From Anaerolineae bacterium (lineage in GTDB: Bacteria; Chloroflexota; Anaerolineae; S140-20), in contig JALUTT010000070.1 in NCBI GenBank assembly GCA_027021705.1, positions 1 through 43,453 of the forward strand: a stretch of 43,453 nucleotides of DNA, in the 5' to 3' direction. Below, one piece after another: positions 12,001 to 15,000 of this stretch (positions are counted from its first letter, which is position 1; each line of letters opens with the position of its first letter). A program made the position numbers.

Positions 12001-15000
12001 CGCCGCAGCTCCTCCGCCAGCCGCTGGGGAGGCTCCACCTCGTGGAAGACGAAGGCCACCCAGACCAGGTCCATCCGGGCGTCGGCCAGGGGAACGTCGG
12101 GGAGCTCGGCCTGGACCGCGCGGACGTGGGCCGGTGGGCGGTGCTCTTGCAGCACCGCCAGCATCTCCGGGCTCACGTCCAGGGCCCACACCTCCCCCGT
12201 CGAACCCACCAGTTCGGCCAGGGGGAGCGTCCAGAAGCCCGGCCCGCAGCCCAGGTCCAGCACGACCTGGCCGGCCTTCACCCCCAGGTCGCGCAGGAAG
12301 CGGGGAGGGTCCCAGCGGGCCTGCCGTTGCGGGTCCACCAGCACGTGGTAGCGGCCGGGGTCGAAGCGTCGTTCGTGGTCGGCCATCAGGTCAACTCCCG
12401 GCCGGCGTACTGACGCCGGTAGTAGTCTTGGTAGAACTCGCCGCTCTTGATGGGCCGCCACCACCACTCGTTCTCCACGTACCAGCGGACCGTCTTCTCC
12501 AGCGCCTCCTCGAAGGTGTGGCGGCTCCGCCAGCCCAGGGCCTGGACCTTGCGGATGTCCAGGGCGTAGCGCCGGTCGTGGCCGGGCCGGTCGCGCACCG
12601 GCTGGATCAGGCTGTGGGGCTTGCCCAGCAGGTCCAAGATCATCCGGGCCATGTCAATGTTGCGCGTCTCCACCCCCGTGCCCAGGTTGTAGATCTCCCC
12701 CGGCTTCCCCTTGTGGAGCACCACGTCAATCCCCTCGCAGTGGTCCAGGACGTACTGGTAGTCCCGCATCTGGGAGCCGTCGCCGTAGAGGGGGAGGGGG
12801 ATGTCGTCTATGGCGTTGGTGATGAAGAGGGGAACGACCTTCTCCGGGTACTGGTAGGGGCCGATGTTGTTGGAGCCCCGGGTGATGGTCACGGGGAGGT
12901 CGAAGCTGTGGTAGTAGGCCAGGCACATCAGGTCGCCGCCGGCCTTGCTGGCCGAGTAGGGGCTGCGGGTGTGGAGGGGGTAGGTCTCCGTTGCCCGGCC
13001 TTCCAGGATCTCGCCGTAGACTTCGTCGGTGTTGTGCAACAAGCAGGGGACGTTGCCACCGAAGAAGCGCTCGTTCCCCGGCACAGAGACGTCGTAGACC
13101 ATCACGGTCCCCGGCACCCGCCGTATCGCTCTGACCTTAGCCACTCCCACCGGAGAGTTCAGCAACCGCATCAATCCTTCCGGTGGGTTCTCGAAGGTAG
13201 CGGCCAGGGCCAAAGCCTTGTCCTTCCCCACCAACGGTTTGCGGGAGATTCTGACGCCTCGGTGTTGATGGCATCCCAGCTTTTCCACCACCACGGCGGT
13301 GGGCACACAGCGGGCCATAGGGGTGCGCCAGGATCGGCTCTCCGAACGGCGATAATGCTCGGCGGTGATCTGCAGGTCGTAAAAAACCCGCTCTCTTGTC
13401 ACCGTGATGTTGGGGGGCACCTGTCCCCGGATTTGCCGGACGGTGCGTGAGCTTAGGAGACAGTTGATGTCGTGCAACCGGGCCAACCAGACCAACTCTG
13501 CGGCCAGCGAGCGATTGACCGTAGTGAAATAGCGACGCCCATCGGCCTTCACCGTGCCGTCGCCTTCGTATCCTTGGAAGAACGCTTCGATGAGGGATTT
13601 AGGCTGCGTCCAGATCCACGGGGGCAGGCGCTTGGTCTCAGCGGTCGCCCCGAATTGACGAAAGAGGGCATGCACCCAATAGCTGCTGTATCGCACCTGA
13701 ACGCTGCTCTCCTGCTCCTTGACGTGAGGTTCGATCCCCAGCACTTCCCGAGCACATCGGATCAGCTTGTCCAAGGCCGCTTGCTCTTCTCGGCCCAGGG
13801 TGAAGACCACCGTCCTCCCATTCTGAGCCATCTCGGCTTCGGTGTGGGAACAATGCCCCTCGGCCAGATATAGGCCGAATACCTCCATGAGCAGAGGGGT
13901 CACGACAATGCGATCCCGCTTGATGTGCAGCTTGCGTTTCACCGCGTCCCACCACAGGTTGTCCAGACGCTCCCAGGCATCGTTCAGGGCATCCTCGGTG
14001 ATGGCATAGACACCGCCGGGTGTCTTCTCCAGGTAACCGCCCTCAACCAGGGTTTGCGCAATGCGGTAGACCGTCGTTCCGGCGATCTGGCCGTGGAGCG
14101 CCCTTTGTAGCTCCGCATAGCGTGCGGGCCGGGCCTGAACCGTGGCCAAGACTTGCTGATGCCGCTTCAGGGTGTCGTCCAAGCCCCGGTAGCTATAGCC
14201 GCGCAGCAGCCGGCGCAGCTCGAAGACGTGGGGTTGGGCCTCCGGCCATATGTCGCCGACGAAGGTCACCAGAAAATCCCCGACCTGAATTTCGCGGACC
14301 GGCTTGGTGACGATACGGGAACCGTCGAAGACAAACACGGAGTGGGTGCCAGTGGCCCGAAGGCGTCCTCCGCCCGTGTACGTGATTTCGTAGACCTCAT
14401 CGGCAGGGTGCTTGATGAAGCGACGCAGGGGCCGGAAGGCCACCTGGTACTCGTCGGTCATTGTGAGCACGCTGTAGCGGGTGATCTCCTCTCCGTCCAG
14501 GGAGGCGATGGGGCGTAAAGCCACTTCTCCCGTCTCCTCGTCCCGCACCAGGATGGGGGTATCGCCGGTGACGCTGCTCACCTGGTGGTAGCGCTCGACG
14601 CCGTGCTCTTTGGCCGCCTCCAGCAGCACGTAGGTGCCGTAGATGTCGGTTTGGATGAAGGAACCGGGCTCCATCAGAGACCTGTCCACGTGCGACTCAG
14701 CCGCGAAATTGACGACGGCGTCTATGCGGTGCTCCTTCATCACGGCGTTCACCTGGGATGCATCGCAGATGTCGCCTTGGACGAAGGTGTAGCGCCCTCG
14801 GAAGCGCTCGGCCACGTCCTGCAGGTTCTCCAGCCGGCCGGCGTAGGTCAGCTTGTCGTAGACGACGATCCGGTAATCGGGATACTTCTCCAGCATGTAG
14901 CGGACGAAGTTCGAGCCGATGAAGCCGGCCCCTCCGGTGACCAAGATGTTGCGCACGGTGCTATCCTCCATTCACCACCAGGCCCAGATGGCTGTTGTCC

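Follow-up and report, generated by a model that had tools for sequence, protein, structure and literature searches.

What occupies the 515 residues that separate the two parts of dTDP-glucose 4,6-dehydratase (RmlB) in an Anaerolineae bacterium (Chloroflexota; assembly GCA_027021705.1)? The gene lies on contig JALUTT010000070.1, whose 43,453 nucleotides constitute the window analyzed here. We consider it very probable that a full-length, bifunctional class-1 intein of the LAGLIDADG type, beginning with serine (Ser1), interrupts the genome's only rmlB and is mobile by homing. This answer builds on observations of its anatomy, the conservation of its splicing and endonuclease residues, its predicted fold, the empty sites in relatives, and its presence or absence at the level of strains.

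The open reading frame of the precursor spans 12386..14971 on the minus strand and would encode 861 aa when counted from the first ATG, which lies in frame upstream of a GTG. The GTG at 14956 (856 aa) agrees with the M-[RK]-N-[IL]-L start of the homologues, and the gene limits proposed in an earlier note on this genome (12386-14956) could be retained. Its assignment of the intein to precursor residues 128-642, with the junctions HQVS/SVTGDTPILV...CLLHN/TDEVYG (slashes mark splice junctions), was likewise confirmed. The features of the locus are collected in Table 1.

Table 1. Features of the rmlB locus, with coordinates in the window
Feature	Coordinates	Strand	Basis
rmlB precursor gene, 856 aa plus stop	12386..14956	(-)	TIGR01181, split in two pieces
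N-extein, 127 aa, Rossmann GxxGxxG part, ends ...ERYHQVS	14576..14956	(-)	alignment with PDB RmlB chains ends at the Ser before TDEVYG
C-extein, 214 aa, begins with Thr+1 of TDEVYG, includes YSASK (YxxxK)	12389..13030	(-)	alignment with PDB RmlB chains begins at the STDEVYG Thr and extends through the C-terminus
Intein, 515 aa (P0118), Ser1...His514-Asn515, precursor residues 128-642	13031..14575	(-)	splicing motifs; exact 1545-nt absence in intein-free contigs
N-terminal splicing (Hint) subdomain, intein residues 1-105	14261..14575	(-)	TIGR01445; match to TFIIB mini-inteins 5o9i/5o9j
Winged-helix-like inserted domain, intein residues ~120-216	13928..14218	(-)	PF25213, HTH_IclR, model
LAGLIDADG homing-endonuclease domain, intein residues ~222-405	13361..13912	(-)	conserved motifs; 2cw7 match; fold
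LAGLIDADG motif 1, intein residues 229-241, LMEVFGLYLAEGH	13853-13891	(-)	conserved residues
LAGLIDADG motif 2, intein residues 330-341, EAFFQGYEGDGT	13553-13588	(-)	conserved residues
C-terminal splicing subdomain, intein residues ~474-515, block F VYDVSVPG..FFGG, block G CLLHN	13031..13156	(-)	invariant residues
RmlA-like sugar-phosphate nucleotidyltransferase, 365 aa, upstream neighbor of rmlB	14961..16058	(-)	PF00483, 204.5 bits

The exteins together matched the RmlB equivalog model TIGR01181 with 434.9 bits (cut-off 365.1), and the Intein_splicing and intein_Nterm matches fell between its two pieces. Their best match in the PDB was the dTDP-glucose 4,6-dehydratase 6bi4 (2.7e-101). GGAGFIGS, (S)TDEVYG, and YSASK are readable in the exteins and conserved in the alignment; we take them to represent the NAD site (GxxGxxG), the T-D-E active site, and the Y-x-x-x-K motif, respectively, and Thr+1 of the C-extein is presumably the catalytic threonine of the enzyme. 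The insertion point lies between Ser127 and Thr643 (856-aa numbering) within the SDR motif S-T-D-E-V-Y-G, and the junctions align with S/T of STDEVYG in the solved RmlB structures, the Ser becoming contiguous with T-D-E only after splicing. Excising the 515-aa insert restored a contiguous, conserved RmlB when compared with the solved chains, the orthologue of genome G066, and intein-free contigs. In public records, such precursors of ~850 aa are named 'GDP-mannose 4,6-dehydratase' or 'epimerase family protein', with the intein unmarked.

The RmlA-like gene and rmlB likely share one operon. A search of the genome for a second RmlB found none, and RmlD is encoded (281.7 bits). Being the sole RmlB found, with the RmlA-like gene adjoining and RmlD encoded, rmlB is needed by the cell. 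RmlC gave only a weak, sub-threshold match (64.5 bits; cut-off 155.75 bits), and the pathway steps after RmlB are incompletely accounted for. The genome having been binned from a metagenome (completeness 94.9%, contamination 4.5%), both the single rmlB copy and the count of ten inteins in one genome depend on binning.

The splicing residues were examined in an alignment of 32 RmlB-type inteins that reaches down to 31% identity. Block A reads S1-V2-x-x-D5-T6-P7 (S-V-T-G-D-T-P) and block B T75-G-T-H78; S1, V2, T6, P7, and H78 were invariant in all 32, with T75 kept in at least 90%. At the C-terminal end, Y494, D495, F504, G506, G507, P510, L512, L513, H514, and N515 were invariant as well. The upstream junction S/SV was found in 37/37 RmlB-type proteins with an intact N-terminus and the downstream junction LLHN/TD, with Thr+1, in 42/42. 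Ser1, the TxxH motif, the penultimate His with the terminal Asn, and Thr+1 place the RmlB intein in class 1.

By analogy with characterized class-1 inteins, we propose the following course for splicing. After translation of the 856-aa precursor, the two halves of the Hint domain would fold together, an N-O acyl shift would take place at Ser1, and the hydroxyl of Thr+1 would attack the resulting ester. Cyclization of Asn515, aided by His514, and an O-N shift would then yield a native Ser-Thr peptide bond in an active RmlB of 341 aa. The freed intein would act as a homing endonuclease that cuts the empty site of intein-free rmlB alleles, into which it would be copied by recombinational repair. 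Splicing, endonuclease activity, and homing are activities that we infer, the evidence for cleavage of the empty allele and homing being indirect: presence or absence among near-identical strains and a sporadic distribution that crosses phyla. The weak RmlC match could hint at a decaying pathway, in which an intein that no longer splices would have left rmlB a disrupted pseudogene; we give this hardly any credence, given that the 856-codon frame is open, that every splicing residue is preserved, without variation among the 32 sequences, that the exteins exceed the TIGR01181 equivalog cut-off, and that the sole rmlB copy adjoins an intact rmlA-like gene.

In the central region, the two LAGLIDADG motifs read GLYLAEG (E239) and GYEGDG (D339). 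G234, Y236, A238, G240, K315, G335, Y336, and G338 were invariant in the 32 aligned inteins, and the acidic residues E239 and D339 were kept in at least 90% of them. A phmmer search of PDB sequences matched PI-PkoII (2cw7) to intein residues 221-367 (E 7.2e-12). The AlphaFold2 model of the intein (pLDDT 91.1, pTM 0.88) had 2cw7 as its best Foldseek match (E 1e-28, TM 0.63), followed among the top matches by the TliVMA intein (7qss), PI-PfuI (1dq3), and PI-SceI; I-DmoI chains matched at E ~1e-4, in agreement with an endonuclease fold. Pfam LAGLIDADG_3 (PF14528), which the earlier note had cited for its inteins, did not match the RmlB intein at E<=0.01; it matched those of Gmd (33.1 bits) and UXS (43.5 bits). 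As judged from the motifs, the PDB sequence match, and the predicted fold, the RmlB intein is of the LAGLIDADG type.

Between the N-terminal splicing half and the endonuclease, the model places a domain ordered helix-helix-helix-hairpin (pLDDT 83-90), with an HTH_IclR match (E 0.0021) and a PF25213 match of 26 bits, under the 35-bit cut-off of that family. This winged-helix-like segment had no counterpart in the Gmd intein by BLASTP, and a protein database search with it gave no usable match. Relatives show endonuclease decay, with a deletion of 29 codons in P0003 and run X5 and loss of the acidic residues in P0033.

The distribution of the intein was then compared among genomes and metagenomes. 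In the same-family genome G066, rmlB is uninterrupted (ERYHQIS-TDEVYGH; 68-69% identity). Among 400 other genomes sampled from the class, 2 contained a full-length RmlB-type intein; of three from the same family, none did. Intein-free contigs from two vent metagenomes had flanks ~98.6% identical to the locus and lacked exactly 1545 nt. Near-identical strains thus differ in whether they carry the intein. For runs X3 and X4 the evidence was taken only from contigs bridging the intein site: one 493-nt contig of X3 aligned with 12834-13031 (2 differences) and 14580-14871 (5 differences), bridging a net absence of 1545 nt, and X4 had the same joint. Neither run had cover over the intein, and run X2 showed a 1545-nt skip. 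The presence and absence among strains could equally reflect precise loss via recombination with an intein-free allele.

At the intein-free joint of rmlB, the Ser codon is TCA in G066, TCC in X3/X4, and AGC in X2. The AGC codon at -1, found in 11/11 intein loci, was considered as a mark of co-conversion and rejected because the intein-free joint of X2 reads AGC/ACC. A foreign origin read from the lower G+C of the intein (0.59-0.65; C-extein 0.65-0.67, whole genome 0.66) was also rejected, the difference being too weak.

A search of genome contigs with the single RmlB intein as query returned no related loci, and when repeated with a 3-sequence intein alignment it returned 5. The genome is from a hot vent, and the DNA comes from hydrothermal-vent and hot-spring metagenomes, with no RNA dataset among those listed for the locus. 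Inteins of other Anaerolineae and of Competibacteraceae share 54-56% identity with the RmlB intein; the gammaproteobacteria with an intein at 55-56% identity are Candidatus Contendobacter odensis and an uncultured gammaproteobacterium, and the exteins of these proteins are 49-56% identical to those of the RmlB studied here. The similar divergence of inteins (55%) and exteins (49-56%) between the phyla, seen in sequence comparisons, is compatible with horizontal transfer and leaves the matter undecided.

The bin contains at least 10 inteins; three other genomes of its family have 0-1. The GyrB, DnaB, DnaE, and two SufB inteins reported previously were found, as were the precursors of GDP-mannose 4,6-dehydratase (Gmd), UDP-glucuronate decarboxylase (UXS), and a DUF362 protein at their reported coordinates. 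Two observations are additional: the GyrB intein also begins with Ser and has Thr+1, and, where contig C12 begins, a UDP-glucose/GDP-mannose dehydrogenase carries a contig-truncated intein before its CFPKD cysteine. Nucleotide-sugar enzymes (RmlB, Gmd, UXS, and UDP-glucose dehydrogenase, Ugd) accordingly host 4 of the 10. The UXS intein had been described as splitting the catalytic motif; it sits instead in RIFN/TYGPRM, downstream of an unbroken LASTSEVYG.

For RmlB and Gmd, the same insertion site had been claimed. Ser1 and the shared motif stand; the position does not. The Gmd precursor reads FYQASSSVAGD, with three Ser, and therefore its junctions are FYQASS/S...LLHN/SEMFGK rather than FYQAS/S, one codon downstream of the RmlB site. 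In the DNA alignment, this one-codon offset separated 6/6 Gmd loci from 5/5 RmlB loci.

The similarity between the two inteins was reproduced by BLASTP (35% over 307 aa and 43% over 115 aa, E 5e-44), and they are mutual best matches within the genome (summed bits 235: 151+84). The earlier note took this kinship to indicate spread between paralogous host genes. Three SDR paralogues of the intein-rich bin do carry Ser1 inteins, as a recent jump between rmlB and gmd (and uxs) in this organism or its close ancestors would predict. The identity figures contradict such an event, which we regard as extremely improbable: the allelic intein P0003 of another metagenome shares 86% identity with the RmlB intein, and an allelic intein in another Anaerolineae genome shares 76% with the Gmd intein, far above the 35-43% between the RmlB and Gmd inteins themselves, and identity comparisons showed no sign of recent transfer within the genome. 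The UXS intein stands even further apart (27-29% identity) and belongs to a family of its own, with 965 proteins at E<=1e-8, of which the best 120 listed all have SDR/UXS-type hosts.

An older connection is conceivable: a single ancestor of the RmlB and Gmd inteins would have moved non-allelically in the distant past between the paralogous S-[ST]-x-E motifs, with a one-codon slip to land before Ser/Thr. We find this plausible, with doubt slightly outweighing belief. A set of 114 inteins was extracted, and relatedness was judged from pairwise and HMMER scores. Gmd-type proteins were the best non-RmlB matches of the RmlB intein (175-204 bits, against <=160 for FlaI-type). The reciprocity within the genome, the near identity of blocks A and G, and the similar upstream DNA (YCAYCAGG...AGC) in all 11 RmlB and Gmd loci agree with a common descent, as does a second Gmd allele, P0055, which sits exactly at the RmlB-equivalent position (QAS/SSEMFG). 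Homing between ancient paralogues has been described in Anaeramoeba (PMC10710043). Set against this are the low identity of the two inteins and an archaeal FlaI-type intein that is almost as close to that of RmlB (131+83 bits, summed 214, against 235 for Gmd); in a representative search, T2SSE/FlaI hosts also outnumbered SDR hosts by 13 to 4 among the 22 closest matches scanned. Moreover, the Gmd intein of this genome resembles the RmlB intein more closely than it does P0055 (167 bits), which points to several independent invasions of the motif.

On sequence similarity, the RmlB intein is placed in a Ser1 lineage (SVTGDTP...LLHN/S or T) found at many conserved motifs bearing Ser/Thr in archaea and bacteria, whose hosts also include FlaI, FtsH, RFC, primase-like proteins, and TopoVI-A. 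That a single, still active lineage spreads by non-allelic homing into Ser/Thr-bearing active-site motifs (SDR dehydratases, FlaI/T2SS ATPases, FtsH, RFC, primase-like, TopoVI-A), tolerating one-codon slips (RmlB S/T, Gmd SS/S), is a speculation we think rather unlikely. If it is true, the coexistence of intein-plus and intein-minus strains in vent metagenomes would make this a natural system in which to measure non-allelic homing and its target rules.

The concentration of inteins in RmlB, Gmd, UXS, and Ugd, two of them with a catalytic residue as +1 nucleophile, could also suggest that they were kept for a function, gating the supply of nucleotide sugars for the cell envelope conditionally and post-translationally, for example by temperature, rather than being just parasites. 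The vent and hot-spring sources would suit such a switch; conditional splicing is reported for hyperthermophiles (PMC5790916), and Novikova et al. (PMC4760082) see function behind the clustering of inteins. The RmlB intein is nevertheless lacking in near-identical strains and in a same-family genome, its distribution is sporadic (2/400), and conserved endonuclease residues alongside scattered endonuclease decay fit a selfish homing cycle, which makes a domesticated switch improbable and a mobile class-1 intein the preferred reading.

The kind of intein and the type of host are already on record. The earlier note had allowed that its hosts might be listed elsewhere, and the searched part of the supplement of Novikova et al. 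(2016, Mol Biol Evol 33:783, PMC4760082) names RfbB, GMD, COG0451, and Ugd: RfbB/COG1088 with 2 inteins, both from Euryarchaeota (Archaeoglobi, Methanobacteria), GMD/COG1089 with 1 (Oscillatoria acuminata), WcaG/COG0451 with 8 (Cyanobacteria), and Ugd/COG1004 with 10 (Euryarchaeota). DUF362 was not found as a host in that part. Literature searches returned nothing linking inteins with dTDP-glucose or with DUF362, and for intein plus sugar epimerase no relevant paper appeared, by title and abstract start, among the matches listed.

The importance of the locus is modest, and the understanding of inteins is unchanged by it. Its interest lies in a cysteine-independent Ser1/Thr+1 lineage of hot habitats, whose inteins occupy catalytic residues in several nucleotide-sugar enzymes; presence or absence of the intein can be tracked at strain level in existing metagenomes. 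Ser1 inteins of thermophiles, with S/T at +1 as their sole stated flank requirement, are potential splicing tools.

Compared with known systems, the RmlB intein shares its host family with the RfbB inteins, which the searched part of PMC4760082 lists as archaeal, with no site or sequence seen there, whereas this one is bacterial (Anaerolineae). The intein of Methanocaldococcus sp. P0039 occupies the same S/TDEVYG site with Ser1 and Thr+1; the RmlB intein is just 34% identical to it and carries the winged-helix-like insert, which is of lower conservation. The GMD, COG0451, and Ugd inteins in the searched part of that supplement are, when likened by host family alone, the probable counterparts of the Gmd, UXS-type, and Ugd inteins found here; nucleotide-sugar enzymes are thus hosts in both, with all four types here in one bin. 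In Anaeramoeba, Gallot-Lavallee et al. (2023, PNAS, PMC10710043) likewise describe paralogous proteins that carry related inteins at paralogous sites and, as in the Ser1 lineage, one intein cluster spread over many unrelated hosts. That system is eukaryotic with recent intragenomic spread, whereas the RmlB-Gmd link is old, with no intragenomic event indicated.

Among solved structures, the closest splicing domain by sequence is that of the Mja/Mvu TFIIB mini-inteins (5o9j, 5o9i; E 3.8e-12), which matches RmlB intein residues 35-104 and 467-515; these structures, called mini-inteins in the PDB, comprise 184 and 195 residues and come from a different host. In overall architecture, the intein resembles PI-PkoII (2cw7), TliVMA/PhoVMA (7qss/7qst), PI-PfuI (1dq3), and PI-SceI (1vde/1lws), with Foldseek E values of 1e-28 to 1e-10. 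A Hint domain, a nested double-motif LAGLIDADG endonuclease, and an accessory DNA-binding region are common to all of them, at 10-20% sequence identity to the RmlB intein. The hosts of that group are DNA polymerase, V-ATPase, and RNR, in contrast to RmlB here, and in the RmlB intein the accessory domain, as modeled, resembles a winged helix that follows the N-terminal splicing half.

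A GTG start at 14956, which agrees with the start position of the homologues, gives an RmlB precursor of 856 aa. The ORF matched TIGR01181 (dTDP-glucose 4,6-dehydratase) with 434.9 bits (cut-off 365.1) in two pieces, between which matches to Intein_splicing (PF14890) and intein_Nterm (TIGR01445) were located. The junctions read HQVS/SVTGDTPILV ... CLLHN/TDEVYG (slashes mark splice sites) and bear out the intein borders proposed in the earlier note. When solved RmlB structures were aligned using phmmer, the N-extein ended at the Ser and the C-extein began at the Thr of STDEVYG; the first C-extein residue (+1), the nucleophile, would therefore be the Thr in the active-site motif of this SDR enzyme, a residue that we take to be catalytic in RmlB.

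Coordinates and borders of the features discussed
Feature	Location	Strand	Details
rmlB precursor ORF	12386..14971	-	861 aa counted from first ATG
RmlB intein (P0118)	13031-14575	-	residues 128-642 of 856 aa; 515 aa
HepT-like RNase and MNT-type nucleotidyltransferase (toxin-antitoxin pair)	16055-16718	-	just upstream of rmlA-rmlB
GyrB ORF	L007 (contig C20) 1521-5213	-	560-aa intein, IIVM/SVDGDE...CCHN/TDADVDG
Intein cut by contig end	L008:1-414 (contig C12, contig start)		...LVAHN/CFPKD; CFPKD cysteine at +1

In an alignment of 32 RmlB-type inteins with identities down to 31%, residues S1, V2, T6, P7, H78, K315, Y494, D495, H514, and N515 were invariant, as were G234, G240, G335, and G338, the glycines of the two LAGLIDADG motifs; T75, E239, and D339 were present in at least 90%. 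Pfam LAGLIDADG_3 gave no match to the RmlB intein at E<=0.01. The endonuclease part resembled PI-PkoII (2cw7, sequence E 7.2e-12), and the splicing part resembled the Mvu and Mja TFIIB mini-inteins (5o9i, 5o9j; E 3.8e-12). An AlphaFold2 model built from the alignment (mean pLDDT 91.1, pTM 0.88) had as its top Foldseek matches PI-PkoII (E 1e-28, TM 0.63), the TliVMA intein, PI-PfuI, and PI-SceI. Taken with the model, the insert appears to be a complete bifunctional intein. A segment of ~100 residues separates its N-terminal splicing half from the endonuclease; it is predicted to fold into three helices and a subsequent hairpin (residues 132-192), reached 26 bits against the winged-helix family PF25213 (cut-off 35), and had no counterpart in the Gmd intein of the same bin by BLASTP comparison. 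We considered it a putative accessory DNA-binding module. Several inteins of DUF362 and GyrB hosts list helix-turn-helix families (PF13518, PF13384, PF13542, PF01381, and PF13560); the insert of the bin's GyrB intein reads like an XRE-type helix-turn-helix, and the similar GyrB protein P0113 lists PF13560. Nested accessory modules of this type seem common among the LAGLIDADG inteins of these data.

A second RmlB was not found in the bin (estimated contamination 4.5%), where the precursor's closest other matches were Gmd and a 36%-identical SDR. An RmlA-like nucleotidyltransferase lies directly upstream, and the bin contains RmlD (281.7 bits) and a sub-threshold match to RmlC (64.5 bits); the rmlB gene is probably needed by its host. 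The adjacent toxin-antitoxin stretch has a G+C content of 0.50-0.53 vs ~0.66 for the genome.

Distribution of the intein was patchy. The orthologue in G066, of the same family, is uninterrupted (ERYHQIS-TDEVYGH, 68-69% identity). Across 400 other genomes, with the class sampled evenly, full-length RmlB-type inteins occurred in two (G008 and G183, both Anaerolineae; 54% identity) and in none of the three same-family genomes. A search of GTDB contigs with a three-sequence alignment yielded five loci. Two were the G008 and G183 MAGs, two were gammaproteobacterial at 55-56% (Candidatus Contendobacter odensis and an uncultured gammaproteobacterium), and the fifth was a partial match in Woesearchaeota; this result assigned the genome of the window to class Anaerolineae. 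Public runs containing the stretch were hydrothermal-vent and hot-spring metagenomes, and contigs of four (X2-X5) were compared with the window. In X3, a single 493-nt contig covered 12834-13031 (2 differences) and 14580-14871 (5 differences) with three other letters between the two parts; the net absence, exactly 1545 nt, equals the intein length. X4 contained an identical joint. A somewhat more divergent contig of X2 also skipped 1545 nt, and low-depth contigs identical to the intein were present in the same run. The hot-spring run X5 covered the entire intein at about 90-95% identity except for an 87-nt gap, in the region 13374-13463, corresponding to a 29-residue in-frame endonuclease-domain deletion in P0003, the closest database relative (86% identity by BLASTP, 91% in the alignment). 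The related intein of P0033 has lost the acidic endonuclease residues. From the contigs of these runs, near-identical strains with and without the intein therefore exist, and endonuclease decay is apparent among its relatives. Both are the pattern expected from a homing cycle; the picture would be identical if the intein had been lost precisely, via recombination with an empty allele. On the homing reading, the RmlB intein is apparently still mobile.

All four precursors reported in the earlier note (RmlB, Gmd, UXS, and DUF362) were recovered at their positions, and its BLASTP figures for the RmlB and Gmd inteins were reproduced. The two inteins had been assigned to the same site, but alignment of flanking DNA from 5 RmlB and 6 Gmd loci placed the Gmd intein one codon downstream. 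The Gmd protein carries three serines (FYQASSSVAGD...), the intein starting at the Ser that precedes Val, which gives FYQASS/S...LLHN/SEMFGK; the Gmd allele P0055 occupies the RmlB-equivalent position (QAS/S...AHN/SSEMFG). A second Gmd intein, at NH[ES]/C...HN/SPRRG, is present in P0055, P0046, and two Anaerolineae loci (L013 of G188 and L015 of G058); this Cys1 intein (LFNH[ES]/C) occurs in addition to the Ser1 intein. The first Gmd intein of L015 has a degenerate LAGLIDADG motif (FYLARGQ). The claim that three SDR catalytic motifs are split was overstated, as the UXS intein lies in RIFN/TYGPRM and leaves LASTSEVYG, well upstream, intact. The GyrB intein, already listed, proved to be likewise Ser1/Thr+1 and is the second-best match of the RmlB intein in the bin, behind the Gmd intein; the four Ser1 inteins have their best matches among themselves in a BLAST matrix. 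The list also lacked a tenth intein, in a UDP-glucose/GDP-mannose dehydrogenase, the fourth nucleotide-sugar enzyme with an intein here. The bin thus holds at least 10 inteins; Intein_splicing matches in the same-family genomes G019, G066, and G107 numbered 1, 1, and 0 (completeness 86, 91, and 64%).

Pairwise, the bin's RmlB intein scored 235 bits with its Gmd intein and 214 bits with that of the FlaI protein P0051, and FlaI-type inteins thus appear nearly as close to it as the Gmd intein does. The Gmd intein scored 118 bits with P0051, 167 bits with the site-a Gmd intein of P0055, and 692 bits (76% identity) with its allelic counterpart in G086. These scores indicate that the allelic rule dominates. 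The RmlB-Gmd link is probably old: of the proposed spread of one intein between paralogues, transfer within this genome left no sign in the pairwise scores, and an ancient non-allelic move is possible.

Searching with the RmlB intein retrieved 116 proteins at E<=1e-5, whose junctions were read by script. Forty-two were RmlB-like SDRs with LLHN/TD (S/SV in 37 of the 37 with an intact N-terminus) and 8 were Gmd; the remainder carried an SV[TS]GDTP...LLHN intein at other sites. Hosts of this Ser1 lineage included FlaI/T2SS ATPases (A/S...HN/TGH), primase-like proteins (KF/S.../SG.KGFH), FtsH (two sites), RFC, and TopoVI-A. An intein of this lineage (YVGVGA/SVTGDT...LLHN/SKVR) is also present in three FtsH-like AAA/M41 proteins (P0094, P0106, and P0107) that NCBI attributes by name to the fungi Coemansia and Linderina. 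HMMER against 1.84 billion representatives gave 950 matches at E<=1e-3, of which 201 reached E<=1e-10 and 26 reached E<=1e-30; Pfam hosts for 22 of the closest representatives were T2SSE/FlaI (13), SDR (4), and FtsH (2), with 3 lacking a host domain. The UXS intein (965 proteins at E<=1e-8, the best 120 all with SDR/UXS hosts from many phyla) and the DUF362 intein (154 proteins, DUF362 hosts in 117 of the best 120) each belong to a separate family. Several of these proteins already bear the automatic JGI name 'intein/homing endonuclease'.

By sequence and predicted fold, the only rmlB found in this thermophilic Anaerolineae bin carries a genuine, complete LAGLIDADG intein of the Ser1/Thr+1 type. 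Beyond the earlier note, the analysis adds the one-codon RmlB/Gmd offset, the breadth of Ser1-lineage hosts, the fourth nucleotide-sugar host, and strain-level presence/absence of the RmlB intein. A full-text literature search, with InBase and subscription journals outside its scope, found no inteins mentioned with dTDP-glucose or DUF362, and supplement file 2 of Novikova et al. (2016; PMC4760082) did not yield a DUF362 host. The main text of that survey lists UDP-GlcDH as an intein host, and its supplement lists two RfbB/COG1088 inteins in Euryarchaeota, one GMD/COG1089 intein in Oscillatoria acuminata, eight WcaG/COG0451 inteins in Cyanobacteria, and one WecC intein. A study of Anaeramoeba (PMC10710043) discusses inter-paralogue as well as non-allelic homing, and conditional splicing is reported for hyperthermophiles (PMC5790916). 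Host type and principle were therefore already known, and the bacterial case is an addition to them.
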